Source: a virus
Strand: one strand, 5' to 3'
Length of the DNA stretch: 64,000 nucleotides
IMG/VR virus record: IMGVR_UViG_3300042542_004852
In this document: one piece after another, positions 25,494 to 64,000 of the stretch
Position numbering within the stretch: the stretch's first letter is position 1
How the letters are laid out: each line of letters begins with the position of its first letter
Position numbers and translations under genes: made by a program
The notes under the pieces: model-generated
What the model was told of the DNA's origin: nothing
The model's input: the letters and a program-made list of their open reading frames with translations, nothing else
Databases searched by the model: none

Positions 25494-26723
25494 ATGCCTC
25501 CAACGCCAACGCCAACGCCGCCACCTCCAACGCCACCTCCAACGCCGCCGCCGCCACCTCCAACGCCGCCGCCGCCACCTCCAACGCCGCCGCCGCCACC
25601 TCCAACGCCGCCGCCGCCACCTCCAACGCCGCCGCCGCCACCTCCAACGCCGCCAACGACATACGGTTATACTGGAACAGACTGCAATGGTGGTTCTATA
25701 ACGATTTATACTTATCAGCCTAGTTTTTCCGCTAATGATACGGCTTATTCTGATTCAGGCGGGGCATCTCCTTACAGTGGTTATTTCATTTACAACGGAA
25801 GCGTTTATTCATACACTGGTGGCACTAGCACACTAGTAACTTCTTACAGTAATAGCGTGTCAGAATGCGCTGGTGGTACAATAACGATTTATACTGCTGA
25901 AGGTCCAGCATTTAACGTTAGCTATACTGCTTACACTAATGCGTGTTTAACTACGCTTTTTAATGGAGCTATTTTTAACGGTGGAAATAATTACAAATAT
26001 TCGAGCGGCGTTGCTTCTCAGTCCTATAGTTATGTTGGAACGCTCTGCAATGGCTCTCCTGTTACGATCTATACTAGTCAATCTAGTTTTTCCACTATCA
26101 GCACTGCTTTTGCTGATGAGTGTTTAACTACGACTTACGCTGGATTTTTTATTTACGGTGGAGTTGCTTATTCTTATTCAAGCGGTAATGGTTCTCGATA
26201 TTCTTACGCTCATGTTGGAACAGATTGCAATGGCAATTCTGTGACGATTTATACAACTTCTGCTATTTGGTCCGATACTGATACTGCTTATTCTGATCAG
26301 TGTCGTACAACAACCTATAGTGGATATTTTATTGCTAGTGGAGCGGTAGCGGTTTATTCTTATTCTAGTGGCATCGCCTCTTTAAGCTCTTGCTCAACAC
26401 CGCCGCCACCACCAACGCCGCCGCCAACGCCGCCGCCGCCAACCCCAACGCCCCCTCCAAGTCCAGTACCATCTTACACCAATCCCAACATTCTAAAAGC
26501 AGACATCCATTCAAGCTACGAAACTGGCTCTGGAGCTTGGCAAACTTATAGAGCTAATGTGACTGGATTGTTTGTTTCAAATTCTGGCGCAAACAGAGCA
26601 GACTATCGCGATCACCTTATTAGAGAATTTAATCGTAAAATCAGCATTTTAAATCAGCCCACGGGATTGTTTATCAGGCCGTTTGACGATGGTTTTAGGT
26701 TTACGGGAACTTCAGTTTATTAA
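25494..26723 (+). CDS. Pro-rich repetitive probable virion protein
   Basis: (TPPPPPP)n N-terminus, four Tyr/Cys repeats of about 50 aa (GTDCNG..TIYT), a second Pro tract, and a C-terminal domain shared with the next gene. Confidence 0.7.
   Translation: MPPTPTPTPPPPTPPPTPPPPPPTPPPPPPTPPPPPPTPPPPPPTPPPPPPTPPTTYGYTGTDCNGGSITIYTYQPSFSANDTAYSDSGGASPYSGYFIYNGSVYSYTGGTSTLVTSYSNSVSECAGGTITIYTAEGPAFNVSYTAYTNACLTTLFNGAIFNGGNNYKYSSGVASQSYSYVGTLCNGSPVTIYTSQSSFSTISTAFADECLTTTYAGFFIYGGVAYSYSSGNGSRYSYAHVGTDCNGNSVTIYTTSAIWSDTDTAYSDQCRTTTYSGYFIASGAVAVYSYSSGIASLSSCSTPPPPPTPPPTPPPPTPTPPPSPVPSYTNPNILKADIHSSYETGSGAWQTYRANVTGLFVSNSGANRADYRDHLIREFNRKISILNQPTGLFIRPFDDGFRFTGTSVY
25539..25643 (+). repeat. Five perfect 21-bp tandem repeats (coding PTPPPPP)
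   Basis: CCAACGCCGCCGCCGCCACCT five times. Confidence 0.95.
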
Positions 26724-26732
26724 TTTTAAAAT

Positions 26733-27593
26733 ATGACACTTTACTATATAGATCAAGGTTCAGGGCTTTGGAATGATCCTGACAACTGGTTTCAAAACGA
26801 AGCTGGAACTATTCCTAATGGCCTTGTTCCAAGTCCACTTGATGATTGTGTAATTAATGCTGGTAATACTGCTGATGAGTTGATTGGCACACATAGTAGC
26901 GTTGTCAACAATGGCACAATCATTCAAAACTTCGATGCCATCACTATCAACAACGGCACCGTCAACTACAATGGCAGCACCGTTGAAGCCAACAATGGCA
27001 CTATTGATGCCAACGACGGAATCGTTGACACTAACGATGGCACTGTCACTGTCAATAACAACAGCGGCACCGTCATCTTCAACTACAACACTGTCGTCAA
27101 CAACAACGGTACGGTCACTTCCAACTACTACAACAGCATCCTCACCGTCAACAACAACAGCATCACCTACAACTACGGCACCGTCACGACCAACAACAGT
27201 GGCGGCACCATTGATACTAACGACGGCACTATTGACAACAACAACGGTACCGTCAATTACAACTCCAGCGAAGGCACAGTAACCAACAACTGTGGTACCA
27301 TCATTACTAATGAGGGTTTTGCTGGCCCATGTCCCACATCGTCTTATACTAATCCCAATATTTTAAAAGCTGACCTTCATGCGAGCTACGAGACTGGCCT
27401 TGGAACTTGGCAAAATTATCGCGCTAACGTGACTGGATTGTTCGCAGCGAATTCTGGAACTAATCGAAGTGATTACCGCGATCACCTTATTCGAGAATTT
27501 AATCGTAAAATTAGCGTTTTAAATCAACCAACAGGTTTGTTTATCAGACCGTTTGATGATGGTTTTAGATTTACGGGAGTTTCAATACAATAA
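26733..27593 (+). CDS. Beta-solenoid (NNGT-repeat) probable virion protein
   Basis: GLWNDPDNW...VPS..DD autotransporter-like start, NNGT(V/I) repeats, shared C-terminal domain. Confidence 0.7.
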   Translation: MTLYYIDQGSGLWNDPDNWFQNEAGTIPNGLVPSPLDDCVINAGNTADELIGTHSSVVNNGTIIQNFDAITINNGTVNYNGSTVEANNGTIDANDGIVDTNDGTVTVNNNSGTVIFNYNTVVNNNGTVTSNYYNSILTVNNNSITYNYGTVTTNNSGGTIDTNDGTIDNNNGTVNYNSSEGTVTNNCGTIITNEGFAGPCPTSSYTNPNILKADLHASYETGLGTWQNYRANVTGLFAANSGTNRSDYRDHLIREFNRKISVLNQPTGLFIRPFDDGFRFTGVSIQ

Positions 27594-27622
27594 AAAAGGG
27601 CGGGATTTCTCCCGCCCTTTTT
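27593..27622. terminator. Bidirectional terminator
   Basis: AAAAAGGGCGGGA-TTTC-TCCCGCCCTTTTT between convergent genes. Confidence 0.9.
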
Positions 27623-27637
27623 CTTAGTTCTTACTTC

Positions 27638-28636: not shown

Positions 28637-28676
28637 AATTCTGTTATTATAGTTTGGGTTGTGGGTTTGTCAAGGA

Positions 28677-30617: not shown

Positions 30618-30661
30618 CGTGAGTTAATATACTGGCAAAATAGTGTTTGTCAATCAGAAAT

Positions 30662-38306: not shown

Positions 38307-39125
38307 TCAAATGTTTTGATAAGGTTTTTCGCGAAACCATTTTGTCAAAATAAACTTTTCGCCCTCTTCGACTGGCATGCCCCAATGCTTTGATTCGGGA
38401 ATGTTAGAACCGTCTTTGGTGTTTTGCCACAAAATCATTGTGCCAGTTTCGGGTTTTGTTTCTAAATCTATTTCTGTGAATTTAGTGTGTCCACCCTTGG
38501 GAGTGTCATTCAAGTAGATCATAGCAGTCCAAGTGCGGTTTCCATGTAGTTCCAACTCTCGTCTTTGTTGTTCTGTCAAAGGAAAGAAAGAATCAAAATG
38601 AGGTTTGAATTGCTCACCAACTTTATAATATTGGCCCTGAATTTGCTCACCGTATTTTTCTGGGATATTAATAATTTTTAAAATCTCATCTTCGATTTCA
38701 TCAATCACAGGATCAGACTTGCGAAACAAATGAGCAGTCGAGCTTGTGCGAAAGTCAGAAATTTTGTTACCACCATTGTCATAATCAATGACAGAAGATT
38801 TTTGACAGCGATTCCTGATGACTTGAATCATGCGAACGCACTGGTCTTCTGTTAGGGCGTTTTTGATTTTAAAGATATTTAATTTATCAGACAGCTTTTC
38901 TGCGCCAAATTTAGTTGTTAAATTCTCGATTTCAAGAGCAGGGGGCGCGTCTTTAATTTTTTCAAGAATGTCTGGCATGGAGAATTCTGTGATAATCAAG
39001 CTTTCATCAAAGCCTTTTTCAAGTAAAATCTGTGCTAATTCTCGTTTTTGAGAACCTCTACGAACATTATCCCAAATCCAAAACTTCCAAGAATCGTCAA
39101 AGCTAGTCTTTTTCATATTAAACAT
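38307..39125 (-). CDS. Prolyl 4-hydroxylase-like 2OG-Fe(II) oxygenase
   Basis: RTSS, QYYKVGEQFKPHFD, GNRTWTAMIYLND..KGG.TKF, H.GMPV..GEKFILTKW. Confidence 0.85.
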   Translation of the reverse strand: MFNMKKTSFDDSWKFWIWDNVRRGSQKRELAQILLEKGFDESLIITEFSMPDILEKIKDAPPALEIENLTTKFGAEKLSDKLNIFKIKNALTEDQCVRMIQVIRNRCQKSSVIDYDNGGNKISDFRTSSTAHLFRKSDPVIDEIEDEILKIINIPEKYGEQIQGQYYKVGEQFKPHFDSFFPLTEQQRRELELHGNRTWTAMIYLNDTPKGGHTKFTEIDLETKPETGTMILWQNTKDGSNIPESKHWGMPVEEGEKFILTKWFREKPYQNI

Positions 39126-49356: not shown

Positions 49357-52300
49357 ATGAATCATTATATTAAAAAATATTTTCACAAGATTGCTGGTGC
49401 TGGAGGTGGTGGTGGTGGTGGTGGTTCGCCTCCACCTCCTCCGCCGCCAACATTAAAGCCGCCGAAGCTTGGAGATTTACAAGCTATATCTTCATACGAA
49501 TATATTGAAAATATTGACTTGATTTCAGACGGAGAAATTGATGGTTTTGTTAGCGAAAGAGGGGATTATGTTGAAGATACAAGGCTCTTCGAAAGTGTTT
49601 ATGTCAACGATGTTGCAGTCAGGCAACCTGTTGATATTGATGCTTCTACTGTGGCAGAAATTGATTTGAACTTTATCAAAGATGCTTTTAAACAAAAATT
49701 TTATTTAAAAGGTTATTTTTCAAAAGAATATTTTATCGAAACCTCAATTTCATCGTTAAATGGGTGGCAAATTTCAAAATCTGTTGATGGAGGAAGTTTA
49801 ACTGCCACAGTTATAAAAGGCAAAACTGAAATCGCTAATTCAATATTTAATGATATTATCTCTGTCAAATCTGCTTATAATACTTCTTCTTTTGATACAA
49901 GTAGTGCATTTTTTAAACAGTTAAGATTATTGAATTCTAAATTTAATTATTCGAATTCTAAAGAAGTTGAAGCATATCTGCTTCCATTTAGCCCAGAATT
50001 AAGAGCTGATCAGTATCCGTTTATAGCTTTAAAGCTTTCGTTAAATATAATAAGATCAGACTATCCATATTACAGTATGGATGATTTTATTTATTTAGAT
50101 TCTGATTTGAGAAATCAAATATATAACCCTCTTGAAGGAACCGAATTACAAGGAAGAGCTTGGAAAAGCCCTCCTCAAAAAATTAATTTGGCTTATTTTT
50201 ATAATTCAAATGCAGGATTCGGAATTAATGGAGTCGGAATTAATGGAAGCGTTTATATTTTCTTGTACCAAAAAGATGATTATATTCTTCAGAATGGAGT
50301 TGAAGCGGTTATTGAACATTTAAATAAAATTAAACTTATCAAGCCATTTTCTAAATATAATTATGCTAATGCCACAATCGAATTGAGAAATGGAGAAGAG
50401 CTACAAAAACCATTAAGTTTATTTAATAAAACTTACCTCGATCAGAGATACAGTTCAAAACTAAGGGGAGCCTTTATCAGGGGTAGGCCAGTATTAACTC
50501 TATTTAACAGTGATACGAGTGTATTATACACGCAATATTCTCCAAACTCTGCTTATGCTTCTTCTGGAATTCTAACTAATGAAGTTGACGAATTAATTAA
50601 TAAAAGAGAGTATAATCAATACATCGTTTACCATAACGGCCTATATAATGGTGGATCAGGTTTCGATAATTTTGTATCCGAAATTTTAAATTCTACTGGT
50701 AGTGTCAGATTGAAGTCGATTACTAAATCTTCTAACCCATCTTCAGTTAACTATCAAGCTTGGTCAAATTCAACATCTGAAACTCAAAATATTTTAACCT
50801 ATATTTTTACTGACTCTAATGGCGGACCAAATGCTGAATATTTAATTATTTTTGACCGAGCAACATCTTGTTTTAAAAGAACAATTTCAATTACTAATAC
50901 AACAAACCGCCGAAATAATAAAGCAACTACCTCTCAATCAGCTACTACTACAATAGATATTTTATCTTCTGATACTGTTTTTATTAAAGACATTGATACA
51001 GATATTATCGTTGCTTCTGCGCCGCAGCCAACACAGCCAACGACAAATACAAAAACAATTTACATCTATAATCAACAATTTCAAGTAACAAATATTAATT
51101 TAGATAAGTATTTTTGGGGAGGAATTTTAAGAGCTTGTTTAGATTTGTCATATAAAATTGATGGTAGTGATGATGTAAGATTTTTGCCAAGTGTTGAAAG
51201 TTATACTGCTTGGAACGATCAATATGTTAAATATTCGGCTGAACCAGCTTCTTCAATTACTCATGCTGTTTTAAATCCAAATGTTTCTCAAGTTTATATT
51301 ACGCTTAATGTTACTGTGTTAAGAGACATGGCTCATAGGGATATTACTTTGATTAAGAATGATGGAGCAAATCAATCAGTAGAAGCTGGCACTTTATTGC
51401 CTTCTTTAATTAGAGTAAGAATCGAAACAGGGTTTCAAAATAAAGATGGTTCGGAAGAATTAATCTCTTCTAGAGAGTATCAGATCAAAGGTTTAATTGA
51501 TTCGGCTGTAAAAATAGATATTGGTAGAGAAGAAAATAATAACGCTATAAGAGAGTATAGTAGATTCATCTTGGGTACTGAAAATGTAGCAAAACCAATT
51601 GAATTGCCTCAAGCACAATCTGATCGCGTAAGATTTGTTAGAGTTTGGAGATCAACGGCTGAAACTTATTCCTCTCTAATCAAGAGAGAAATATACTTGG
51701 AAAAAATTACTGAAATTATCAATATTCCGTTTTCATATCCTTTTTCAACGATTTGTGGTTTAAAATTGGATTCAAGAAGCTTGAATGAAATTCCTCCAAG
51801 GAGTTATGATGCAAGATTTAAAAAGGTTTTCGTACCAAGCAACTATTTCCCATTAAATTCAAATGGCACAGATAAAAGATATATTTTAGGAAAAAATCTT
51901 GGCTATTTTAATTCTCTACCATCGACTGACAATAAAAAAATAATTTACAAAGGAAATTGGGATGGTACCTTTAAATTATCTTGGACAGACAATCCAGCTT
52001 GGATCACTTTTGATCTGTTAATTAACAGAAGATATGGTTTGGGTAATTTCATCGAACCAAATCAAATAAATTATTGGGAACTATATAAAATCGGAAGATT
52101 TTGCGATGCTGTTGACGAAAATGGACTTTTCCAAGGGGTTATCGCTAACGATGGTGGATTAGAGCCTAGATATGCATTTAATGGAGTGATAGCTGACAAA
52201 ACAAATGTCTTTGACATGGTAAAGTCTATTATCTCTTCTTTTAGAGGAAACCTTTTCTATTCTAATTCAGAAATTAACTTTACGAACGATAGGTTAAAGC

Positions 52301-53589
52301 CAGTCATGTCATTTTTTAACAACTCAAATGTTAAAGATGGTGTGTTTTCTTATTCCAATGACAGAAGAGATTTGCAATACAATGTTATTGAAGTATCGTT
52401 TTTGGATAGAGAAGACTTGTTCAAGAAAAAAATTGAATATGTAGAAGACCCTGACGATATTAAAAATAGGGGAATTTTAAGAACAACAGCCGACACTTTT
52501 GGAGTTTCTAGTCGCGCACATGCAAAAAGAATTGGAGAGCACATTATTTATTCTTCTATCAATGAAGATCAAAGCGTTGTATTTATATCTTCGCTTGAAA
52601 CTTTGCTATGTAGGCCAGGAGATTTAATTGCAATCAACGATGAAGTAAAAACTTTAAAGAATCATGTCGGAAGAGTTTTGTATACTGATTTAGTATCCAA
52701 TTCTATTTATACAAACATTTCATTGTCTTCGCAAGACTTTAATCCATCTGGGTTAACTGGAGAAATATCTGTTTTAATTCCTACTGGCAAGCCTCAATCT
52801 GAAGATTTTTATGATTTAGCTAAAAGCACATCAAAAATTAATATAAGAGAAATCTATAAAACAGATGCTCCGATGAGAGTCACTTTGCAAGCTACAGGAT
52901 TAATGCTTGCAAATACTTCTCCATCTCTTGAATATGGTTCAGCTTTTTTCATTAATACTGGTTGTAGCGGGTTCCCTTTGATGTCTCAAATTTCAAACGG
53001 TGTTCCGTGTTCTATAACTCTAGCTAATACAAAACAAGAAATTTATAAAATAAATTCGATTAAAGAATTAAATTTAAACGAATACGAAGTGACCGCAGTA
53101 AAATTTGATACAGGTAAATTTGCTGAAATCGAAAAAGGAGAAACTGGATTATTACAAGACTTTTATAATTCATTTCCAAGCTCAAGAAATACCCAAGTCT
53201 CCGAAGGAAACAGTGATTTGTTGCAAAATAAATACAGATATGACCTATCATATCCAAGCATTTTGGAATTCACTACGGGTAATTATGATAGAGAAAATGA
53301 CTTTATAGATATTTCTGGACGATGGACATCTGTTGATGGGGCTAATTTATATAATGTAGAATTAATTTCTCCAACTTATAAAAGTAAAAAAACGACAACT
53401 CAAAACAACTATATTGTATTCGAAGATGAAGCTGAAATCGGAAGATACACTATAAAAGTTACTGCTAAAACAACTGGTATTTATCCAAATCCAATTTCTC
53501 CAACAGCAGTTGGTGGTTTTAAAGTTTATTCTTATGATGCTCCCGTAAGAACAAATTTAATTGTTGACTCAGTAACGATAAACAATTAA
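49357..53589 (+). CDS. Tail tip/host-specificity protein J-like
   Basis: DLISDGEIDG, YKGNWDGTFK..WTDNPAW, RYGLG, LEPRYAFN, CRPGDLI. Confidence 0.9.
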   Translation: MNHYIKKYFHKIAGAGGGGGGGGSPPPPPPPTLKPPKLGDLQAISSYEYIENIDLISDGEIDGFVSERGDYVEDTRLFESVYVNDVAVRQPVDIDASTVAEIDLNFIKDAFKQKFYLKGYFSKEYFIETSISSLNGWQISKSVDGGSLTATVIKGKTEIANSIFNDIISVKSAYNTSSFDTSSAFFKQLRLLNSKFNYSNSKEVEAYLLPFSPELRADQYPFIALKLSLNIIRSDYPYYSMDDFIYLDSDLRNQIYNPLEGTELQGRAWKSPPQKINLAYFYNSNAGFGINGVGINGSVYIFLYQKDDYILQNGVEAVIEHLNKIKLIKPFSKYNYANATIELRNGEELQKPLSLFNKTYLDQRYSSKLRGAFIRGRPVLTLFNSDTSVLYTQYSPNSAYASSGILTNEVDELINKREYNQYIVYHNGLYNGGSGFDNFVSEILNSTGSVRLKSITKSSNPSSVNYQAWSNSTSETQNILTYIFTDSNGGPNAEYLIIFDRATSCFKRTISITNTTNRRNNKATTSQSATTTIDILSSDTVFIKDIDTDIIVASAPQPTQPTTNTKTIYIYNQQFQVTNINLDKYFWGGILRACLDLSYKIDGSDDVRFLPSVESYTAWNDQYVKYSAEPASSITHAVLNPNVSQVYITLNVTVLRDMAHRDITLIKNDGANQSVEAGTLLPSLIRVRIETGFQNKDGSEELISSREYQIKGLIDSAVKIDIGREENNNAIREYSRFILGTENVAKPIELPQAQSDRVRFVRVWRSTAETYSSLIKREIYLEKITEIINIPFSYPFSTICGLKLDSRSLNEIPPRSYDARFKKVFVPSNYFPLNSNGTDKRYILGKNLGYFNSLPSTDNKKIIYKGNWDGTFKLSWTDNPAWITFDLLINRRYGLGNFIEPNQINYWELYKIGRFCDAVDENGLFQGVIANDGGLEPRYAFNGVIADKTNVFDMVKSIISSFRGNLFYSNSEINFTNDRLKPVMSFFNNSNVKDGVFSYSNDRRDLQYNVIEVSFLDREDLFKKKIEYVEDPDDIKNRGILRTTADTFGVSSRAHAKRIGEHIIYSSINEDQSVVFISSLETLLCRPGDLIAINDEVKTLKNHVGRVLYTDLVSNSIYTNISLSSQDFNPSGLTGEISVLIPTGKPQSEDFYDLAKSTSKINIREIYKTDAPMRVTLQATGLMLANTSPSLEYGSAFFINTGCSGFPLMSQISNGVPCSITLANTKQEIYKINSIKELNLNEYEVTAVKFDTGKFAEIEKGETGLLQDFYNSFPSSRNTQVSEGNSDLLQNKYRYDLSYPSILEFTTGNYDRENDFIDISGRWTSVDGANLYNVELISPTYKSKKTTTQNNYIVFEDEAEIGRYTIKVTAKTTGIYPNPISPTAVGGFKVYSYDAPVRTNLIVDSVTINN

Positions 53590-53600: not shown

Positions 53601-56492
53601 ATGCCAGAAGAAACGACGACAACGACAACAACGTGGTACCCAACGACTACTACTACTACGACAACAACTACGACAACTACTACTACCACAACTGCATGCC
53701 CATGCTACAGCGAAAGTTGGAAATACGATTGTGAAGGTGCTGGTTCTCTTGAATTATGGCAGAGTAATGGAGTTTTTTATATTGCTTCTGGTGATTGTTG
53801 TGCAGAAATTACTGAAGGTTTAGTTAATGCGAGTTATTACACAGACCATTCGCCAAGAATACGGGTAGAATTTACAAATGGAATTCCTGACCCTCAAGAA
53901 GAATGCACAACAACTTGCGCACCATGTCAAAGCGAAACTTGGAGATTAGGTTGTACTGGTGATGCTTCCATTAATTTATGGCAGAACAGCGTTGATGGGC
54001 GCTATTATACTAATGCTGTTGGTTGTACTGGAGGTTCAAATTGCCAAGGAGAACCTTTTGACCGTGTAGGCGCAAATGGAACTGTGACTTATTATACAAA
54101 CATTGCACCACCAAGGGAACGTGTAGAATTTGTAAATGGCTCTCCTGCATTTATAGGAGATTTTTGTACAACGACAACAACGACAACAACAACTTGCACA
54201 CCATGTCAAAGCGAAACTTGGAGAGTAGATTGTACTGGTCTTTCTTACGTTAATTTATGGCAGAATAATGGACGTTATTATACTAATCCTGTTGATTGTA
54301 CTGGAGGCGCATATTGCCAAGGAAATCCTTTTGGTGAAGTTGGTGCCAATGGGCCTGTATATTATTATACAGATGGCACGCCAAGACAACTTGTGCAATT
54401 TAGCTATGGAATACCTGATCCTCAAGAATATTGCCCACTCCCTGAGTGGACATGCGATGAAGTTGGTCTATGTAGAGTAAATTTAGGTTATGGGCGACCT
54501 AAAAGATTTACTGTGCCAGAAGGTTTTAGTAATGCAGGAGAAAGAGAAACATGCTATTGTTGCGATGATGGTTCATCGAACGATGATTATCCTGACTGTG
54601 AGCAGACAACAGGATTTACACCAGCCCCATTTTCAGCAGGAACTGGACAAGCATCGTTAATATCAAATTGTATTGATTTGCCGATTAATTTTACCTATGA
54701 AGATGTTTATGGTTTTAAACTACAATCAGAAAAAGACATTGAAAACTTAAATAATCAAGAGTTCTTTACAACTATTTCAGCCTATGATAGGGATTCTGTT
54801 TTAGTTAGAGAAGATTTCTTTAGTGGAAATTTAAATCTATCATATACTTTTACGAAGGAACAAAATAAGCAAATTTTTGTCGGACCAAAATATGATCCAA
54901 ATGGAGAAAGAGAGTACATGCTGCTTTTTTCTTTTTTTAATAAAAGCCCATTTGGATTTGCAAAAAACTCTGTTGAGACGCAGCTTTGGCATCCGCCATC
55001 TAGAATTGAATCTGTAACGGTTCAAGATTATTTTACTACGCAAATAACTGGCTTAATTGATTTTCCTATTACTGAATGGACGTATAGTGGATTTAATAGA
55101 ACTTATTTTAGCGGTCTGTATAGATTAAGTGATGTTTCTGGAGCAAGTGGTATTAGTGGCTATACTGGCATTAGTGGCGGCAATTTTAGCGGACAATTTT
55201 TTAATTTAACTGGAATTGAGTATTCTGGTTTTGAAGGATTGTTTAGCGGTTTGAATGGAACAACTGGGATTAATAAATTTGAAATTACTGGCAGAGATCA
55301 ATCATTCACAACTGGTTTTATTTCTGGATTATCAACAATAAATTCTTGGTCTTATAATTCTACTGGCGACGTTTCTGGCTTTAGTATTACTGGATTTATA
55401 GATAGCGGAAATTATTATTCAGTATTTACTGGAGGTGCAAATTTAGGATTAGTTAATACTGGAAATTATGTAATTAATTTTTCAAATTCACCTCCGTTAG
55501 TCAATTTCATTTCAATTCCAAGTGGACAACAAATTGGATTAGCCACTGGTGATATTACAATAAATATCATAGAAGAAACTGGAGCAACTGGTGTTTTAAC
55601 TAATAAATATATTGCATATATTGATGGATTAGAGCAACCCACAGGTTATCCAACCTTATTTGTTGCATCTACTGGCTCAAATGAGATTGTTTTTGGAACA
55701 ACTCCACCAGATAACTCTACTGTTTTAATTAAAGAATTGTCTGGAGTTAATTCAATTTTAAATAATCCTTTAAAAAATGAAGCTATTTTTACAATTAATT
55801 TTGATCAGAATTTTGGCTCTTATTATCAAACAAGAGGAGTAGATATTTATACTGGAAGCCTTTCTGGACAAAGGCCAGACTCATTAAGTGGATTCTCCTT
55901 TCTTAAAAGGACTACATTTTTAGAAAATAAAGCAACACAGGATGTAAAAGTATTCTTTTACGAAGTTCCATCAAATACTGGTATTATTTATAAGTTTGTG
56001 CCATTTGATTGTTTTGACACTGGCTTAACTTATTATAACAATGGGTTATTTGCCTATATTTTTACAGAACCACAAATTTTTACTTTCGAAAATGGCATAC
56101 CTCCAGCTTTGTCTTTTGAACAAAGAACTGGAAATGTATTTAGTGGTAGAAATCCAGAGTTAACTCCAATCAATGTGCCTGGAAGAGATGGAAATTTAAT
56201 TTTCCAAACTGGTAATTCTGGACAGAATCTGTATTTGTTGAAATCTGGTTTGTGGAAAACTATTCTTCCTTATGAAGAATTAAGTGGTATTTTTGATCTA
56301 CGATATGTAAAAAATAGTCAAACAGGACAATTTGTATCTACGGGTTCAACTGGTAGTTTTATAAAACTTGTTCAAACTCCTCAAGTTGCAACTGCAAGCG
56401 GAAAAATTGGAGAAATAGCTTTTTCTGGAACTTATTTATATGCTGCCACTGGAACAAATCAGTGGGGAAGGGTTCAATTATCTTCTTGGTGA
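53601..56492 (+). CDS. Thr-rich/Cys-rich tail fibre-like virion protein
   Basis: Poly-Thr tracts, repeated CQSETW..CTG modules, SG/TG-rich body, C-terminal YLYAATGTNQWGRV. Confidence 0.65.
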   Translation: MPEETTTTTTTWYPTTTTTTTTTTTTTTTTTACPCYSESWKYDCEGAGSLELWQSNGVFYIASGDCCAEITEGLVNASYYTDHSPRIRVEFTNGIPDPQEECTTTCAPCQSETWRLGCTGDASINLWQNSVDGRYYTNAVGCTGGSNCQGEPFDRVGANGTVTYYTNIAPPRERVEFVNGSPAFIGDFCTTTTTTTTTCTPCQSETWRVDCTGLSYVNLWQNNGRYYTNPVDCTGGAYCQGNPFGEVGANGPVYYYTDGTPRQLVQFSYGIPDPQEYCPLPEWTCDEVGLCRVNLGYGRPKRFTVPEGFSNAGERETCYCCDDGSSNDDYPDCEQTTGFTPAPFSAGTGQASLISNCIDLPINFTYEDVYGFKLQSEKDIENLNNQEFFTTISAYDRDSVLVREDFFSGNLNLSYTFTKEQNKQIFVGPKYDPNGEREYMLLFSFFNKSPFGFAKNSVETQLWHPPSRIESVTVQDYFTTQITGLIDFPITEWTYSGFNRTYFSGLYRLSDVSGASGISGYTGISGGNFSGQFFNLTGIEYSGFEGLFSGLNGTTGINKFEITGRDQSFTTGFISGLSTINSWSYNSTGDVSGFSITGFIDSGNYYSVFTGGANLGLVNTGNYVINFSNSPPLVNFISIPSGQQIGLATGDITINIIEETGATGVLTNKYIAYIDGLEQPTGYPTLFVASTGSNEIVFGTTPPDNSTVLIKELSGVNSILNNPLKNEAIFTINFDQNFGSYYQTRGVDIYTGSLSGQRPDSLSGFSFLKRTTFLENKATQDVKVFFYEVPSNTGIIYKFVPFDCFDTGLTYYNNGLFAYIFTEPQIFTFENGIPPALSFEQRTGNVFSGRNPELTPINVPGRDGNLIFQTGNSGQNLYLLKSGLWKTILPYEELSGIFDLRYVKNSQTGQFVSTGSTGSFIKLVQTPQVATASGKIGEIAFSGTYLYAATGTNQWGRVQLSSW

Positions 56493-56827: not shown

Positions 56828-57283
56828 TCATATTTTTTTAATATACGATTCAGTATCTTTTTTAAATCCCATTTTTTGATAAATTTTCTTTAATCTTTCA
56901 GACGTTGGGTAGTTTTCAACGCAGTTCATATTAACGTATTTTATTCCTTTGCTTTTTGCAAATTTGATGGCCTGATTATATAATGCAAATGTTTTTTTAG
57001 GATTTTTACTAATCCAAAAATATTCCGTAAATATTCTTTGATTCAAGAATGGATGAATGCTATTTATAAACATAATCATGCCGTCTGCTAATCCATTTTC
57101 AAAATTTGCCCAGCAACAAATACTACTATTTAATAATGTTGAATGAGCAAAAGAATCAATAACAGACTGAGCATTGATGGGCAGATATGCATGACCATAT
57201 TTAGTATTCTCTTCTTTAAAGAGAGCTTCTAAATCTCTAAAAGCTTTTTCAAACTCTTGGCCAGATGTGACCTTTTTAATCAT
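56828..57283 (-). CDS. GNAT-fold acetyltransferase-like protein
   Basis: EYFW...AIKFAKSKG...IYQKMGF. Confidence 0.6.
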   Translation of the reverse strand: MIKKVTSGQEFEKAFRDLEALFKEENTKYGHAYLPINAQSVIDSFAHSTLLNSSICCWANFENGLADGMIMFINSIHPFLNQRIFTEYFWISKNPKKTFALYNQAIKFAKSKGIKYVNMNCVENYPTSERLKKIYQKMGFKKDTESYIKKI

Positions 57284-58014
57284 TTAGATACAATAGAAAG
57301 AAGTTTGCGGCTTTCTTTGATTGGAATATCTTCAAAAGAATTCCAATTTGCAGCTTCTTCATTTTTGTATGTTTCGTCTTTCCATAGTTTTCTCAAATGC
57401 TTTTTGAAAGCTTCGAAATCATCGCAGCCAAGGTTTTGTTTGGCAGAGTTTTTAAGAGCGCTCTGTGGTGTCAGGGATTGAACGATTGACTCGCTCTCTT
57501 CGTAAGCGACTTTATTTTTAGACTTATCAATTTCATCATCACCAACAATATGAATATTAAGATAATTGCGAACAGAGCGAACAAAAGCACGATTTTCAGC
57601 AATAGGTTCCAAAAACTTAACGCCAAATCCAGAACAATTTTCAGAAGTTGCGTTTGCTGTGCTAGTAAATGTTTGAGCATTGCCGTCGCTTTCATAATTT
57701 GGCATCCAACTAATAGAGCAAACTGCTGTGGCATAATGGGAAGAGATTGTTTCAATTTTAAATTGAACGTCAAGGAAGCCCCTGAGTCTTGCTAGTTCTT
57801 TGATGCCAGCTAGCTTAACAAGAAGCTGATGATCACCAAGACCTTCAATAGAGTCTGGCACTTGAAGTTTGCGAGTTTCAAACCAATCCTTGTTAGGGTA
57901 CAAATGCTCTGGCTTAATCATTGCTCGCCAGTTAATTGAGCCATCTTCGTTGAATTTATATTCAACCCCGTCAATGAGGCCGAGTTCGTTACGCTTATAT
58001 TTGTTAGGATTCAT
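57280..58014 (-). CDS. Rad52/Sak-like single-strand annealing protein
   Basis: ATAVCSI...STANA...IAENRAFVRSVRNYLNI...DEID pattern. Confidence 0.5.
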   Translation of the reverse strand: MNPNKYKRNELGLIDGVEYKFNEDGSINWRAMIKPEHLYPNKDWFETRKLQVPDSIEGLGDHQLLVKLAGIKELARLRGFLDVQFKIETISSHYATAVCSISWMPNYESDGNAQTFTSTANATSENCSGFGVKFLEPIAENRAFVRSVRNYLNIHIVGDDEIDKSKNKVAYEESESIVQSLTPQSALKNSAKQNLGCDDFEAFKKHLRKLWKDETYKNEEAANWNSFEDIPIKESRKLLSIVSK

Positions 58015-59167
58015 AAATAAAATAGTGATCTAGGTCTGTCCAGAAAGACTCATTATAGATCACATCAGAAGCTCTGTCAACAAAAACTTTGTCTAAATCA
58101 GCATGAGCTTTAGAAGCATAACGTTTACCGTTTGAAAAAATATCTTTTTTGGTCAAAAATTTTAAGTTCGAAATCTCGGAAAGATTTTTAATCTTTTCTT
58201 GATTTGAGGGTTCATCAAGTTCAACTCTAAAATCAAAGTAAAAATTTCTAATTTCAGAAATCTGATCTTTGTTTTTTGTGCTGCATAAAATTTCTAGCCC
58301 AAGATTTTTAATAGACTCAAGATATTCGTTACTAAAATCAGTTGTGTTTTCTAGATGAAAAGTAATTTTTTTAATATTCTTTTTACATTTAGATAAAAGT
58401 TGTATGCTAATTGGTTTTGCAGAAATAATATGGCAATCGTAATTTGAGCACCAAGCCATTAAATTATTTTCGTTATGAAAATAATCCATTCTAATATTAA
58501 TGAGCCTATTTTTTAGTTCTTCTGCAAAACCATAAAAGTTAGGAACGACTTCTATAACTCCCTGAGAGTAAGACTCTCCAATGAATTTAGTATTAATGCT
58601 TTTGGTGTATGGAATCTTTAGCAATTCACAAATATTTTTAACAATATCTTCTGGCTTAATTGTATTGATTGATTTCGGCTTTTCGTGATAGCTGTAACTT
58701 GGTTTGCGACCATTTCGATCTGCTTCTAAAATCCGAACCTTACTTGGAGTGCTCCAGTATGGATAAGCATGACTTGGATAAATGTGAGAATAAAGAACAA
58801 CAATTGGAATATCAAAAGCACTCGCTTGATGAATCGGGAAGCTGTCAATGCCCAAGTGAAGACTTGAATTTTTAACAATGTATGATGTCTGTTTCCTTGA
58901 AAAACCAAGGAAAGATTTGTCAACAAGTGGCAATTGCGGGTCTTCTCCGCCACCAATTTGATAAATTTTATATCCCAATGGGTGCAAGAGATTTTTTAAA
59001 AGCTCTATGGCTTCTGGAAAGAATTCATAAAATTTAGAATCAATTTTGTTATCAATGTGAACAGTAATATATTTGTCATCAATAACGGGAATATAATGGG
59101 TTGGAAAAATAGGTTTACCAATTTTAACGCCCAAGTTTTTAGCGTATTCTTCGACTAGATGCGACAT
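58004..59167 (-). CDS. GT9 (heptosyltransferase-like) glycosyltransferase
   Basis: YQIGG...LHLGIDSFPIHQASAFDIPIVVLY...IKPEDIV. Confidence 0.75.
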   Translation of the reverse strand: MSHLVEEYAKNLGVKIGKPIFPTHYIPVIDDKYITVHIDNKIDSKFYEFFPEAIELLKNLLHPLGYKIYQIGGGEDPQLPLVDKSFLGFSRKQTSYIVKNSSLHLGIDSFPIHQASAFDIPIVVLYSHIYPSHAYPYWSTPSKVRILEADRNGRKPSYSYHEKPKSINTIKPEDIVKNICELLKIPYTKSINTKFIGESYSQGVIEVVPNFYGFAEELKNRLINIRMDYFHNENNLMAWCSNYDCHIISAKPISIQLLSKCKKNIKKITFHLENTTDFSNEYLESIKNLGLEILCSTKNKDQISEIRNFYFDFRVELDEPSNQEKIKNLSEISNLKFLTKKDIFSNGKRYASKAHADLDKVFVDRASDVIYNESFWTDLDHYFIYES

Positions 59168-59168
59168 A

Positions 59169-61058
59169 TTATGTTAGTTGTAATTGAGACTTATCTTTGC
59201 CATTGTGTTGATAAGTGAAGTGTTTTTGAGTTGTAACGAATGGCAAAAATGCTAGTTCAAAATATCCTTTATGCTCTCCTTGTCCCTCTAGGAAAAGCAG
59301 ATTATCAAAAATTGGAGAATATGGCAGCACCCTATGAACACATGGATGTTCATCAACGATTTCAAAGAATTGCGGCAAAGTGATAAAATAGATATTATAT
59401 TCTGGATAGAGTTCTTTTAAATTTTGAAGCAGCGAATTCACCATTAAAACATCTCCTGCTGATTGAGGCATCACCACAGCAATTCTTTTGCCTTCGTCAT
59501 CTTTATCTAGAACATCTGCAATATCAATTGTCTTTGGTTCGATTGTGGCTGCTGTATTTTTAAAATGATTTAATACTTGTTCTCTATTGAGGTCTGACTT
59601 GAGCCGATCAATCCAATGCAGGCATCCTTGGTGGTTACAGTCAACCGTTTCGCCAAGAATGTTTTTATACAAGTCAATAAGCCATTCTGTATTGTCTGCA
59701 ATATTTGGAGGCTGATAGTTTGGATTTTTGACTCTTTTTTGAATGTTCCAATCCTCTACGAAAGGTGCGTTGTCAAACATTTCTTCTAGCTGCTTGCAGA
59801 CAACCTCAATTGAGCAATGATTGATTGTAAAATTCCTGGCTTTCTTGCCAATTTCTGCGCGTTTTTCAAGCTTCATGTTGTAAACTTTATCTAATTGTTT
59901 ACAAATACTGAACGCTTTAGTGGACGCTTTGATGAATTGAGTTCCTGGCTCGCGATATTCTGACCAATCAAGCGGCAAACCTCCGCTTTCATCTGTGCAA
60001 TAGTCTTCTCCGCAAGAGTAGTTTGTTACAAGAGTAATGAGTTCAGCAAGTTTGGCTTCTTGAATTGGAATTTCTTGACCACCGCTTGTGAATGGATGAC
60101 AATAAACATCCATGATGTTGTAAATCTCGTTTAATTGAGCCTCATTTACGCCATGCACAATATTTGCTGTCGAAACACTTCTTTGAGCTTTGCAATGTGA
60201 GCAGTTTAGGTCTTGACCTTGATACGATTTGATTTCATACTGGCGACAATTCTTACAAAAGTATGTTGTGAGAATGTCGGAGTTATCAATATTCTTTTCT
60301 CTGAGAAGTCTTGGGATGTCCCATCCTTCTACCCAATGAGTGTGTAGCAAGAGCTTTGGTTTTGCTTGCGGATTTTTTGCCTTGAATTCGCAGAAGCCGT
60401 CCAAAAGATTTGGAACACTCTTTCTAAGCTGATTGCGAAATACAAAACCAATAACAAATTCGTCTTTGAGATTGAATTTTTTTCTCAAATCGTTTTTGGT
60501 TTTTGAACCAAGATTATAGAACTGATTGACATCAAGAGTTCCAGGCAGGGTTTTAACATGATCGTATCCAATCTCTTTTAGAGCCTTTTCTGCGAACGAT
60601 GCCCACACAAGGTAGTTCTTGACCTTTGGCGCTGCATCAACAGCGTCAGGAAGGATTGGAAGCGAATCTAGAGTGGTCCAGATTGCAGAAGTGATGTGGT
60701 TCCACCAAGGCTTGTCCCAAAACCCATTAAAGGCCCAAATATCCTCAATGCCAAGATACACATCTGGTTTGAGTTTTTCAATGGCGCTATCAATGCCATA
60801 AGCACCATAATTGGCGGCTCTTTCTTTGTGACCGTCTCCTCTGATTTGCGCCATGACATTTGGATTTGGCATGGAGCCATAACATTGCCAAGGTTGGAAT
60901 TTGCAATCTGGCGCGTCCCAAGGCAAGCCGTTAGCGAATTCTATAAGTTCATATTTGCCAGTTTCATGAAGCTTGCGCAAAATGTTTTTATTATTTTTCC
61001 CAAATCCAGTAAATAGACGGGAAAAATTTGTATGAATTAAGATTCGCTTTTTTCTCAT
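59169..61058 (-). CDS. GT4-like glycosyltransferase fused to a GT9-like N-terminal domain
   Basis: TGFG, RNQLRK, IYNIMDVYCHP..GGQEIPIQEAK, C-terminal SAGDVLM...LKELYP. Confidence 0.8.
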   Translation of the reverse strand: MRKKRILIHTNFSRLFTGFGKNNKNILRKLHETGKYELIEFANGLPWDAPDCKFQPWQCYGSMPNPNVMAQIRGDGHKERAANYGAYGIDSAIEKLKPDVYLGIEDIWAFNGFWDKPWWNHITSAIWTTLDSLPILPDAVDAAPKVKNYLVWASFAEKALKEIGYDHVKTLPGTLDVNQFYNLGSKTKNDLRKKFNLKDEFVIGFVFRNQLRKSVPNLLDGFCEFKAKNPQAKPKLLLHTHWVEGWDIPRLLREKNIDNSDILTTYFCKNCRQYEIKSYQGQDLNCSHCKAQRSVSTANIVHGVNEAQLNEIYNIMDVYCHPFTSGGQEIPIQEAKLAELITLVTNYSCGEDYCTDESGGLPLDWSEYREPGTQFIKASTKAFSICKQLDKVYNMKLEKRAEIGKKARNFTINHCSIEVVCKQLEEMFDNAPFVEDWNIQKRVKNPNYQPPNIADNTEWLIDLYKNILGETVDCNHQGCLHWIDRLKSDLNREQVLNHFKNTAATIEPKTIDIADVLDKDDEGKRIAVVMPQSAGDVLMVNSLLQNLKELYPEYNIYFITLPQFFEIVDEHPCVHRVLPYSPIFDNLLFLEGQGEHKGYFELAFLPFVTTQKHFTYQHNGKDKSQLQLT

Positions 61059-61059
61059 G

Positions 61060-61518
61060 TTATTCTGTGGCTTGAGCTTTTGATTCAAAAATCTTGACTA
61101 AACAGGTTTCGAGAAACACTCTGAGAGTTTCAGCTTCTGCGAGTTCAACACCCATGCCAAACTTCTGATTGCCATTACGGGAAACAGAAAAAGAAAAAGC
61201 ATCAGCGCCGTCTTTTTTCTTGTATCGAGTCCAAGAGATTTGAGTCTTGTTTTCTTCAAATGAATGGAACGCTTTCCATTCGCTATAAGTGCGAATAGCA
61301 TGGATGAGTCCACCAATTTCATTTTCGTTGATCTTGATGGCAATGGTCTTCTCTGGGTTCTCGCGATTACCAGAGAATGATCCATTCTTGGTTTGTTCAT
61401 TCCAAGAGAATTGCTGAATGCCGTTGACGTAAACTGTTGGTTGTCCCTTATTAGAAAGCTGGAAAGAGAAAGCGCATCCAGTGTTTTTACTGTTTGGTTT
61501 ATAGAAGGCTAAATTCAT
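61060..61518 (-). CDS. Probable ssDNA-binding protein (Whirly/PC4-like)
   Basis: FYKPN...FSF beta-rich repeat with a C-terminal helix. Fold guess only. Confidence 0.4.
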   Translation of the reverse strand: MNLAFYKPNSKNTGCAFSFQLSNKGQPTVYVNGIQQFSWNEQTKNGSFSGNRENPEKTIAIKINENEIGGLIHAIRTYSEWKAFHSFEENKTQISWTRYKKKDGADAFSFSVSRNGNQKFGMGVELAEAETLRVFLETCLVKIFESKAQATE

Positions 61519-61599
61519 ATAGGATAGTAAAATAACACCAATTAAAGTCCATAATTTAACTTAAAAAGTTAATTCATTAATTTTTAAATATTTTTATGC

Positions 61600-62262
61600 T
61601 TATTGCAAAATAATTTTAGGAAATTTATTAATTTTGCTTTCTTTTTTAGAAGCGTTATAGACATTAATTCCTAATTTTTTAGAAATTTCTAATGCTAAAT
61701 TGAACTTTTCAATTAAATAATCTTCTCCTAGTCTAAGTGGGTCTGGCGTACCGTGGCCGTAGAAAAAATCTTCATCAAAATCTTGAAAAAATCTTTTTGA
61801 CCACTCTTCTATTGTTTCATTTTGATCTTTTAAAAAATTATTTTGAGGACTGGGCTTGTTATTTTCAAGCCATTTTTTTGTTTTATCCTTATTATAATCA
61901 TGATCGAATCCAAGTAAATATACATTAGATGGTTTTAATGCTCCAAAAATCCAATACAAACCTTGAAAAAATGTTGTATATCCAACGTAATGAAATGGAG
62001 ATTTTTGATTTAAATCAAGCTTATTATTAATTAAATCTTTAATTGTTGATTCGTATTCTAAATACGAAATTTCATTTTTAAAATTTATTTTTGATGGAAA
62101 ATTTTCTCTTGGAAAGTCCACAGGATGAATCCAATAATCAAATAATTCATTCCCATCAAAAAGTCTCCAAGCGTTATTGGCGCAAATAATTGTATATTTT
62201 TTTTTATCAATAGAATGAATTAATTTAGCAGATTGACCGCTTCCAATATAAATAATATCCAT
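61600..62262 (-). CDS. DUF115/MAF-like glycosyltransferase-associated protein
   Basis: IGSGQS...ICANNAW...VYLLGFDH...VYNAS. Confidence 0.6.
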   Translation of the reverse strand: MDIIYIGSGQSAKLIHSIDKKKYTIICANNAWRLFDGNELFDYWIHPVDFPRENFPSKINFKNEISYLEYESTIKDLINNKLDLNQKSPFHYVGYTTFFQGLYWIFGALKPSNVYLLGFDHDYNKDKTKKWLENNKPSPQNNFLKDQNETIEEWSKRFFQDFDEDFFYGHGTPDPLRLGEDYLIEKFNLALEISKKLGINVYNASKKESKINKFPKIILQ

Positions 62263-62263
62263 T

Positions 62264-63112
62264 TTAAAATAAAGATTTAATTTTTTGTTTAATAGAGTCT
62301 GTATCAATTTTTGGATATTCCTTATTAAAATATTCAATCATTGAAACAATGAATGGGTGATTTTCATCTCTATAAATTTCATACCATCCTAAAAAATAAT
62401 TCCAAACTCTATCTTCAATAATATTTTTATATGGAACGCCATTCGGTCTATCGAATCTATGCGCCCATTTTAATTGTGGTAAGCATATATTTTTGCCACC
62501 ATTAATTTTAAATTTTTCTGATATATAGCCTTCTTCGCCACCAAAACCCCTAAAATTTTGATTAATTTTTGGCCAATTTTTTCTTTCAAATGCTAAAAGA
62601 CCCATTCCTTGCATTTCTATTTCAAATGGTTCGTTTAGTTTTAATTTTTCTTCATTAGTAGCCCAAGTGCCATACATCGCTCCGCTCCATTTTGGAGCAA
62701 AATGCGTCGAAACATAATTCAATGAGTCATAAAGCAATGGCCCCTGAATTAAATCTTTACAGTCTTGATGTTCTTTAAAATAGTAAAGCAAATTATTTAT
62801 CGCATTTGGCTGCAAAATTATATGGCAATCAAGAATGAGTACATATTTGCCAGTTGCATGTTCTACAATTTTATATTTATTAAAAGATGATGTGTTCTCT
62901 GAATACTCTATGTATTTGCCTTTTACAGAATTATTAATAAATTTTTTAACGCTTTCTGCGTGTTTACCGTTTGGATTATTGTCTAATACTATAAATTCAA
63001 TATTATTTTCTAATCCAAGTAAGTGATATAATCTAAGAGCTTGTATGGTAAAATATACACCATCATAATCGTCGTATGTGGCCATTCCAATTGTTAATAA
63101 TTTTTCGCTCAT
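62264..63112 (-). CDS. GT2 glycosyltransferase
   Basis: LTIGMATY...VLDN...LILDCH...GFGGEE. Confidence 0.82.
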   Translation of the reverse strand: MSEKLLTIGMATYDDYDGVYFTIQALRLYHLLGLENNIEFIVLDNNPNGKHAESVKKFINNSVKGKYIEYSENTSSFNKYKIVEHATGKYVLILDCHIILQPNAINNLLYYFKEHQDCKDLIQGPLLYDSLNYVSTHFAPKWSGAMYGTWATNEEKLKLNEPFEIEMQGMGLLAFERKNWPKINQNFRGFGGEEGYISEKFKINGGKNICLPQLKWAHRFDRPNGVPYKNIIEDRVWNYFLGWYEIYRDENHPFIVSMIEYFNKEYPKIDTDSIKQKIKSLF

Positions 63113-63128
63113 TGTTATATTATAAACG

Positions 63129-63746
63129 CTAAAAGTTTAAGAATCTATTGTACAATTCTATAGATTTATAATGAACAGAAGCGAATTTGTCCTTCATTTC
63201 TTTAGACCAAACCTCTCCAGTATATTTTGTTGCCCAAAGTTTTTTATGTCTGTCAATTTTTAAATCGAATTGTTTTTCTACAAAATCTTGCGCCTCATGA
63301 TAACGATCATAAACAAACACTTTATCAATTGCTAGTTCGCCATTAAAGTGAGTGTATTCATATTGATTGATATAATGGTTTAAATTCTTAAATGAGTTTT
63401 TTTCATCTGATAAGATAAAATGCTCTAACGAAGGAATCTTCATGAGTATTTTCATTTGATTATATAAGCTTGTAACTTGATCAAATGGATTTCTTAATAC
63501 AGTAAATTTTAAATATGAATTAGCCTGCAAAAACTTGTAATACTCTGAAATGTAGCTGTGAGAGTGTCCGCGAGCAGTGTGTTTTTGTATTCCATCCATT
63601 GCTCCTCTAATCGTAAATAACTTATAAGAGTCTATGTCGAGATTAGAGCTTTCTGAAAGATGTTTTTTACAAATAGCGAATTCTAAACTAGAGCCTCCAG
63701 TTTTAGGAATATGCACAAAAATAGTTCTATAAACTGAAAAAAACAT
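63129..63746 (-). CDS. Sulfotransferase family 2 protein
   Basis: FVHIPKTGGSS and LRNPFDQVTSLY. Confidence 0.85.
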   Translation of the reverse strand: MFFSVYRTIFVHIPKTGGSSLEFAICKKHLSESSNLDIDSYKLFTIRGAMDGIQKHTARGHSHSYISEYYKFLQANSYLKFTVLRNPFDQVTSLYNQMKILMKIPSLEHFILSDEKNSFKNLNHYINQYEYTHFNGELAIDKVFVYDRYHEAQDFVEKQFDLKIDRHKKLWATKYTGEVWSKEMKDKFASVHYKSIELYNRFLNF

Positions 63747-64000
63747 TACTCTAAAGTAAAATGACAATACATATTTGCATAATAATTTCCGTTAAATGGT
63801 GTCTTTCGACCATGAAGACAAAGAGCAGATTCATAATAAACACATTCGCCAGCTTCGATTAGGACTTGGTGTTCGTTGCCTTCGTGATCTACAATGTCAA
63901 ACAGCCAAGGCTCACCATCCAAAGCAACGCTCATGTTAACGCTGATGTGGTGAGTATCATTTCTGTCAGTGTGCATCTTTAATGAGGCTCCATTCTTGTA
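63746..64000 (-). CDS. 2OG-Fe(II) oxygenase (truncated at window end)
   Basis: LKMHTDR...ISV...GECVYY...HGR...HF. Confidence 0.75.
   Translation of the reverse strand, partial: YKNGASLKMHTDRNDTHHISVNMSVALDGEPWLFDIVDHEGNEHQVLIEAGECVYYESALCLHGRKTPFNGNYYANMYCHFTLE

Follow-up and report, generated by a model that had tools for sequence, protein, structure and literature searches.

The window described here is a stretch of 64,000 nt of the IMG/VR virus record IMGVR_UViG_3300042542_004852, and its source is an uncultured and probably lytic siphophage. It carries tail proteins with proline- and threonine-rich tracts, together with genes for a prolyl 4-hydroxylase (P4H), several glycosyltransferases (GTs), two sulfotransferases and a small kinase. 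An earlier note on this DNA had drawn these into a possible pathway that modifies the virion in the manner of extensins or mucins, and all the tracts and enzymes it named are found where it placed them in the translations of the open reading frames (ORFs). The 46 ORFs between 18 and 64 kb were scanned against Pfam and PHROG, and a further 29 window ORFs were scanned too. Among the matches are markers of a large tailed phage, namely rIIA/rIIB, ThyX, UvdE, a sigma factor, two YopX genes and endolysin-type enzymes, as well as a lambda-like tail tip in the order L-K-I-J that is followed by a fibre gene. The phage is seen as lytic because rIIA/rIIB are present and no integrase was seen in the window.

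Tail-protein tracts and the enzymes encoded with them

The central tail fibre J (49357..53589, plus strand) matches phrog_31, 'central tail fiber J', at E 7e-92 and is certainly a virion protein. Its residues 15–32 (nt 49399–49452) hold a glycine run, GGGGGGGG, followed by SPPPPPPPT. A run of 4–8 prolines is present at the N-terminus of J in all 17 listed sequences of the close clade; the J proteins of the far clade have no proline run at the same place, and SPSYLMPP is found in six of them. Next to J lies a fibre gene (53601..56492, plus strand) whose product has N-terminal poly-threonine runs (T7, T17 and T9) between three cysteine-rich modules. Its C-terminal part is conserved (residues 338–963, or 724–963 in more distant relatives) and its N-terminus is hypervariable. 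This gene is kept in 13 of the 18 loci with a J relative, the remaining five of which end at J, and all 13 have a tract of at least 8 P, T or S residues whose start lies within the first 45 residues of the protein. From relative to relative the tracts vary between poly-T, (PT)n, (TPP)n, (PPPTT)n and (PSPTP)n, and they can exceed 100 residues. Different codons are mixed in the poly-threonine runs, a sign that selection acts on the protein.

The other tract-bearing protein is an accessory fibre (25494..26723, plus strand) that consists of an N-terminal (TPPPPPP)n tail, four two-cysteine beta modules of about 60 amino acids (aa), a second PT linker and a C-terminal adaptor domain of about 80 aa. 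Its true start is MPPTPTP, as in 15 of 16 fetched family members. Its first 55 aa are a T/P tract with (TPPPPPP)5 in it, and its second tract, of 24 aa, precedes the C-terminal domain. When the last 96 residues were searched against 1.84 billion representatives, the adaptor domain gave 112 matches, and in 102 of these it makes up the first ~78 residues of proteins that are 69–1373 aa long. Six of 18 scanned proteins with the domain at the N-terminus have C-termini that match phrog_5939, 'tail protein'. Judged by these sequence matches, the domain is a common tail-fibre anchor that is here placed C-terminally; with the anchor at this end, the T/P tail would be the free distal end of the protein, and the swapped domain order looks like one that would invert the polarity of the fibre. 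The earlier proposal that the candidate substrates belong to the virion is borne out in so far as the tracts stand on probable tail proteins, recognised by phrog_31 in J, by the position after J in the second and by the adaptor domain in the third.

In the AlphaFold2 (AF2) model of the 25494 protein the four beta modules are confident (pLDDT above 90) and the adaptor domain has low confidence. The best Foldseek rows for this model are hairpin repeats of CROP, choline-binding and glucan-binding proteins, which at E 1e-3 and TM-scores of 0.22–0.27 are a lead only, and a wide VIA-align search with it gave no row with Z of at least 5. The segment at 26433–26720 in the window corresponds to the N-terminal anchor of about 100 phage (tail-fibre-like) protein families and is C-terminal in the two accessory fibres of the clade. 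The second of these is an Asn-rich repeat protein (26733..27593, plus strand) with the same C-terminal adaptor domain as the 25494 protein. An exported pair of the Planctomycetes–Verrucomicrobia–Chlamydiae (PVC) type, DUF1549/DUF1553 and DUF1501 (22410–25419), directly adjoins the Pro-rich fibre gene, and DUF1501 is presumably a member of the sulfatase/alkaline-phosphatase superfamily.

The P4H is encoded at 38307..39125 on the minus strand. It is of the collagen type (PF13640, E 6.5e-14) and has an extra N-terminal domain of about 80 aa, which is common to full-length matches in many other large viral contigs. All eight of its sequence matches in the PDB are prolyl 4-hydroxylases (E 1.4e-22 to 1.4e-7), and they span Bacillus anthracis, Chlamydomonas (2jig, E 1.3e-21), human alpha-2 and Paramecium bursaria chlorella virus 1 (PBCV-1; 5c5t, E 1.4e-7). 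The iron triad H176, D178 and H247 aligns with that of the B. anthracis enzyme and is invariant in nine of nine aligned phage sequences. Also invariant in all nine are Y167, T200 and K257, which would bind 2-oxoglutarate (2OG); Y167 stands 9 residues before the first His and K257 stands 10 residues after the distal His. In human C-P4H-II, 2OG is bound by Tyr421, Thr467 and Lys511, as the active-site account in PMC9676403 has it. From the family match, the PDB matches and these residues, the P4H-like oxygenase of the earlier note appears to be a genuine collagen-type P4H. Divergently paired with its gene is one for a conserved 232-aa HExxH protein (39152–39850) with a weak match to the metallopeptidase family DUF6782. 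The pair is found in all close-clade contigs, and a 34% homologue of the HExxH protein occurs in the P4H-negative relative G013. A second 2OG oxygenase had also been proposed, and the C-terminal part of a 186-aa protein of this kind lies at 63746..64000 (minus strand), where it is cut by the window end. The assignment stands on a PHROG match only (E 7e-11), whereas its full-length relative has no Pfam family and finds AlkB only at E ~0.9.

Both of the proposed sulfotransferases are of the carbohydrate type and exceed the Pfam cut-off for Sulfotransfer_2 (22 bits). ST1 (45648..46313, minus strand), which lies beside the tail genes, does so with 70.9 bits, and ST2 (63129..63767, minus strand), which overlaps the next gene by 22 nt, barely passes with 22.4 bits. 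PKxxxS and RNPxD motifs are visible in both. We take these to be the motifs that bind 3'-phosphoadenosine 5'-phosphosulfate (PAPS), and from their sequences both enzymes look functional. A CysC-like kinase as a source of PAPS had been suggested as well. The gene in question encodes a small P-loop kinase (20543..20992, plus strand, probable start 20570) that resembles adenosine 5'-phosphosulfate (APS) kinases. Its family comprises 19 homologues, and 14 members were scanned. The three commonest NCBIfam matches are all adenylyl-sulfate kinase models, found in 11, 10 and 9 of the 14 members (NF004041 in 11, TIGR00455 in 10; best E about 1e-4), and Pfam APS_kinase (PF01583) matches 10 of the 14 over ~80 residues, where generic P-loop models match the P-loop only. 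APS-kinase models are thus the commonest specific family matches, but every model stays below its cut-off (15.1 bits against 21.1 for PF01583, and 15.7–16.8 against 127 for NF004041), and the family profile found no APS kinase and no relevant match in the PDB. The kinase could, going by its sequence, supply PAPS.

One GT is encoded close to ST1, on the same strand and two genes away (44471..45394, minus strand). It is a GT-B enzyme with a fold closest to that of T4 beta-glucosyltransferase (BGT). A second group of genes, all on the minus strand, lies further to the right. It includes a GT4-like enzyme that contains a Cys4 insert and ends in a GT9 N-domain (59169..61088; phrog_2170, E 1.7e-16) and a gene for a GT9 C-terminal (sugar-nucleotide) domain, the C-terminal half of which has no assignment (58004..59167; profile against heptosyltransferase II 1psw, E 9.7e-6). 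Two further genes belong to the core block. One (orf57280, 57280..58014) has weak leads to single-strand annealing proteins (SSAPs), and its profile had no match in the PDB; the other (61060..61518) has a very weak Whirly-like lead (PDB profile, E 0.89). Beyond them are a weakly matched MptE/DUF115-like protein (61600..62337; E 0.0075, below cut-off) and a GT2 enzyme (62264..63112; E 3.5e-10) with a 50% homologue only in L055. The cassette of MptE-like and GT2 genes is seen only in this phage. The set of GTs proposed for 58–63 kb therefore holds for GT2, the GT4-like enzyme and the split GT9, but the DUF115-like member falls below the cut-off. The GT block and the fibre gene are convergent, and tail gene L has ST1 and its GT for neighbours. 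The GT9 enzyme is seemingly split over two genes, with the N-domain at residues ~527–590 of the GT4-like protein and the C-domain opening the next gene; 1 nt separates the stop codon of the one from the start codon of the other, and the two are read in different frames. In the Cys4 insert of the GT4 part, C278 is invariant, and C281, C296 and C299 are conserved in at least 90%.

Distribution among relatives and other viral lineages

The left end of the window, with PhoH and dCMP deaminase, matches the start of the 91.6-kb relative G002. The rest of G002 holds terminase, tape measure, Pol III alpha, DnaB, ribonucleotide reductase (RNR), dUTPase and single-stranded DNA-binding protein (SSB), so that the window and G002 1–64 kb together approximate a whole gene set. 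G002 also encodes a GDP-mannose 4,6-dehydratase (Gmd), which adds a sugar-nucleotide step. Adjoining Gmd in this genome are a GT9-motif-like ORF, another GT-like ORF and a PQ-loop protein (L112 12716–13753 and 14094–15841); the corresponding stretch of the phage itself lies beyond the window. A megablast search of 40000–64000 against cultured phages gave no match, so that there is no close cultured relative, and tblastn with the P4H returned only 8 records in three cultured-phage lineages and one unannotated 6-kb phage fragment.

Relatives of the P4H at 65–98% identity are found in 18 IMG/VR contigs. Nine P4H-negative relatives were analysed over their full length (1.07 Mb), two of them, G007 and G013, being rated as complete, and local profile searches in these nine found no homologue of the P4H, the sulfotransferases or the kinase. 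By a measure of at least 7 Pro in 12 residues in an ORF of at least 100 aa, the 64-kb window has two Pro-rich ORFs, compared with two in total in the nine relatives. ORFs with PT tracts surround the GT4 block in 8 of 11 close-clade loci versus 1 of 36 distant loci, and the three close-clade loci without one lack the fibre gene. The single distant locus is G011, with Thr-rich giant proteins. At 48660–74019 of G011 (L145–L149), four giant proteins of 255–3706 aa with Thr-rich runs adjoin the GT4 block, and no P4H is present. Sulfotransfer_2 cassettes differ among close relatives, with a third sulfotransferase in G002 and another in L055, and ST2 with its overlapping oxygenase is found in a subset of the close clade. 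The GT of the 44471 type is present in the close clade and has one outside homologue (35%), in G008.

A different distribution is seen for the core sugar genes. GT4, the GT9-like gene and orf57280 stand together in 41 of 44 loci with a GT4 identity of at least 39%, the other three loci ending at a contig edge, and the four-gene GT4 block is present in all nine whole P4H-negative relatives without P4H, sulfotransferase or Pro-rich tracts. It is therefore not tract-specific machinery, which weakens the earlier proposal in respect of GT4 and the split GT9; both persist in distant relatives, with GT4 identities as low as 39%. We infer that the sugar toolkit, namely Gmd, a 357-aa GT (GT357), GT4 and the split GT9, is older than the tracts and that its acceptor must be more general. 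The close clade would have added the tracts, the P4H, the sulfotransferases, the kinase and the BGT-like GT together, which is consistent with a functional link. On the co-occurrence that the earlier note had put forward as a check, the P4H, sulfotransferases and kinase are confined with the tracts to the close clade, whereas the core GTs and Gmd are independent of the tracts.

Other viral lineages with a P4H were collected by a profile scan of IMG/VR, in which 80 of 372 P4H-encoding stretches were kept; with the 18 close-clade loci set aside, 62 loci in 32 lineage clusters were left. Within 10 kb of the P4H, 4 of the 32 clusters have an ORF with a strict PT/PA/PS tract; among the control windows the count is 0 of 54 (Fisher one-sided p = 0.017). 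These controls are 20-kb windows cut from nine negative genomes of one phage group and are not independent of each other. The clearest case comes from a viral lineage unrelated to this phage: the gene for a 440-aa protein that bears three (PTPSPTPA)n tracts (L239 8659–9981) ends 20 nt before the P4H (10001–10543), and likewise in L240. A looser Pro-rich measure was positive in 23 of 62 loci and in 5 of 9 control genomes (7 ORFs); since the controls are also positive, it is only repeat-type tracts that distinguish the P4H loci. Pro-rich ORFs near the P4H in these lineages, and in two controls, received no structural annotation in PHROG scans.

Candidate modification of the fibres and rival explanations

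The best single reading of these sequences is that the P4H acts on the phage's own fibre tracts, which is plausible, although we hold it tentatively. Pro/Thr-rich sequence has come to occupy free ends or linkers in three tail proteins of the close clade, namely the N-terminus of J, the fibre that follows it and the 25494 fibre. The P4H would hydroxylate tract prolines in the cytoplasm before the tail is assembled, and hydroxylation might stiffen polyproline rods, create sites for O-glycans, or both. The clade-specific GT, the sulfotransferases and the kinase might then add sulfated sugars to hydroxyproline (Hyp) or Thr, a step that is only weakly supported. It is possible that virions are glycosylated by the clade-specific enzymes. 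A sulfated Hyp/Thr-glycan coat on the virion is speculative and, in our judgement, quite unlikely. We would give the same small chance to a mucin- or extensin-like fibre brush, in which Hyp and Thr would be O-glycosylated with a phage-made deoxyhexose and sulfated by means of phage PAPS. That such sulfated glycans serve as a lure or shield, as had been suggested, is pure speculation. Of the full modification pathway, then, the tail-protein tracts, a genuine P4H and the clade-confined sulfotransferases and kinase can be retained; the core GTs are independent of the tracts, and no Hyp-specific GT was found.

Several observations weigh against fibre hydroxylation and what might follow from it. 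The catalytic-loop Tyr of P4H, which the structural account in PMC9676403 describes as highly conserved and substrate-contacting, is replaced by Phe (Phe173) in the window, the close clade and L024, whereas L019, L021 and L023, which are distant lineages, have Tyr. The genes are dispersed, 10 kb lying between the P4H and J and 12 kb between the P4H and 25494, and replication genes surround the GT4 block. Pfam, NCBIfam and PHROGs yielded no GT family specific for Hyp, only GT2, GT4, GT9-like, MptE-like and BGT-like assignments; the Ser/Thr-Pro(≥3) motifs of extensin-type Hyp-O-glycosylation are present. A nearby tract is seen in no more than the four of 32 other P4H lineages mentioned above, and G005 has a P4H but just two modest Pro-rich ORFs without a PHROG family. 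The co-occurrence in the close clade probably represents one evolutionary event, and because of this it supports the link between P4H and tracts only weakly.

It is also conceivable, if unlikely, that the tracts are unmodified rigid or flexible linkers generated by slippage and that the P4H has a different target, for instance a protein of the host or a further one of the phage. At the DNA level (TPPPPPP)5 is an exact tandem repeat of a 21-nt unit, which slippage alone could yield, tract length and composition are hypervariable among relatives, and the P4H is placed among early and nucleotide-metabolism genes, away from the fibres. The passages of PMC7019647 on the P4H of PBCV-1 give its role as unknown, with no proven substrate in vivo, and state that hydroxyproline was not detected in virion proteins, a further point against hydroxylated fibres. 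P4H-like genes are counted among the commoner 'auxiliary' genes of aquatic phages in the relevant part of PMC9301287, where their use 'remains cryptic'. Plain linkers do not sit easily with the gain of Pro runs in three separate tail proteins of the sole clade with a P4H, nor with the modest enrichment of PT/PA repeats beside P4H in other lineages, and the best solved relatives of the enzyme act on Pro-rich repeats rather than on HIF-type or ribosomal targets.

Two further accounts concern the sugar and sulfate genes. One holds that they remodel glycans of the host envelope, for example to block superinfection or to reduce sticking of progeny to debris, and that the tracts are plain spacers; it would cover Gmd, GT357, GT4, the split GT9, GT2, the MptE-like protein, the BGT-like GT, the sulfotransferases and the kinase. 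We are doubtful of it but consider it a serious possibility, given that GT9, GT4 and GT2 families with Gmd are classic enzymes of lipopolysaccharide and capsule synthesis and that the NCBIfam near-matches are heptosyltransferases and polysaccharide GTs. The core GT block, Gmd and GT357 are present in all nine relatives that lack tracts, which also counts against tract modification, the cassettes differ between close relatives as in O-antigen loci, and the exported PVC-type DUF1549/DUF1553 and DUF1501 pair is carried too. Against an envelope target, the phage appears lytic, so that the benefit of a changed surface would be short-lived, no flippase, polymerase or initiating transferase linked to undecaprenyl phosphate was seen in the window or in G002 1–64 kb, and the sulfotransferases and kinase occur exactly where the tracts occur. 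The other account, that one or more GTs and above all that at 44471–45394 glycosylate phage DNA like T4 BGT, is very improbable, although the fold matches speak for it and thereby against a glycan on the fibres. The 44471 model matches T4 BGT at PDB ranks 1–6 (E 3.6e-9, TM-score 0.62, 17% identity) and T4 alpha-GT at ranks 16–18, and an Atlas search likewise produced leads to T4-Gluco-transf. The GT4 block, moreover, is flanked by the weak Whirly-like and SSAP-like leads, beyond which SSB, dUTPase and RNR follow. However, Gtf3/GtfC, which are protein-glycan GTs of serine-rich repeat (SRR) adhesins, are also among the top fold matches of the 44471 GT, though further down than T4 BGT, and no dCMP/dUMP hydroxymethylase, DNA C5-methyltransferase or TET-like match was found in the 46 and 29 window ORFs or in 64 G002 ORFs. 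In addition, dCMP deaminase, dUTPase and ThyX point to ordinary thymidine, and a glycan would explain better than DNA why the GT is paired with a sulfotransferase and Gmd.

Hydroxylation of the fibre tracts by the P4H can be compared with several known systems. Extensins share with this phage the Ser/Thr-Pro(n) motifs and a P4H, and the phage P4H is about equally close to the Chlamydomonas enzyme (2jig) and to bacterial P4H. The phage enzymes, in contrast, would be cytoplasmic, as their sequences have no N-terminal hydrophobic segment, and the phage GTs match only GT2, GT4, GT9-like or BGT-like families; to our knowledge, sulfation is not part of the extensin pathway. In SRR adhesins (Gtf3/GtfC) and in the BAHT/TibC system, the Ser/Thr-rich repeats of fibres on the cell surface are glycosylated by cytoplasmic GT-B enzymes. 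The likeness of these enzymes to the 44471 GT and the GT9-like domains is one of fold or family only, from which acceptor specificity is not readable, and the link of the GT9-like domains to a BAHT-type heptosyltransferase is our assumption.

PBCV-1 similarly encodes a small soluble P4H (A085R, PDB 5c5t), Pro-rich repeats in its own proteins, several GTs, among them capsid glycosyltransferases, and a GDP-mannose dehydratase, the last of which is here found in the relative G002. It differs from the phage, which has a bacterial host and a tailed virion, T/P runs at fibre ends instead of PAPK-type repeats, and sulfotransferases and an APS-kinase-like gene in addition. The PAPK-type repeats of PBCV-1 were reportedly described by Eriksson in 1999. 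Among bacterial viruses, O-glycosylation of the virion is known from the mycobacteriophages Che8 and Rita (Freeman et al. 2023, as cited in PMC11256854), the only proven case of phage virion glycosylation found cited. Both systems have phage-encoded GTs; there the glycans are covalently attached to virion proteins, while glycans on the virion of this phage are a prediction. The target there is the capsid, and the account in PMC11256854 mentions no P4H, sulfotransferase or Pro-rich fibre tails. In the open-access full texts searched, no paper was found that connects Pro-rich tail proteins with a phage P4H, or virions with phage sulfotransferases. What the window offers is three concrete candidate substrates for P4H on the phage's own tail proteins together with a defined set of enzymes, which can be tested without culture of the host. 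Sulfation of the fibres, if true, would be a new kind of phage virion chemistry with a bearing on adsorption, on sticking to mucus or exopolymer and on evasion of host recognition, and with a fibre brush as described above this phage would be the first bacterial virus known to have a sulfated glycoprotein virion.

Other features of the window

The tail-tip genes L, K and I lie at 47332..49350 on the plus strand and match PF05100 (E 1.7e-31), Prok-JAB (E 9.9e-10) and phrog_32 (E 6e-27). An acetyltransferase-like gene (phrog_1249, E 4e-9) is found at 56828..57283 on the minus strand. ORFs resembling LAGLIDADG-type homing endonucleases are inserted in the replication and glycosyltransferase region of two close relatives (L050 6798–7712; G002, L112 3981–4766). 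The region 2000–18500 of the window has a G+C content of 0.44–0.50, compared with ~0.35 elsewhere, and few long ORFs. An alternative genetic code for this ORF-poor part (2–18 kb) was rejected, as reading through any one stop codon gave no coherent long frames. The region carries genes for tRNA-Arg, tRNA-Met and tRNA-Leu, and ARAGORN reports a 99-nt tRNA-like element with a four-base anticodon at 6399–6497.

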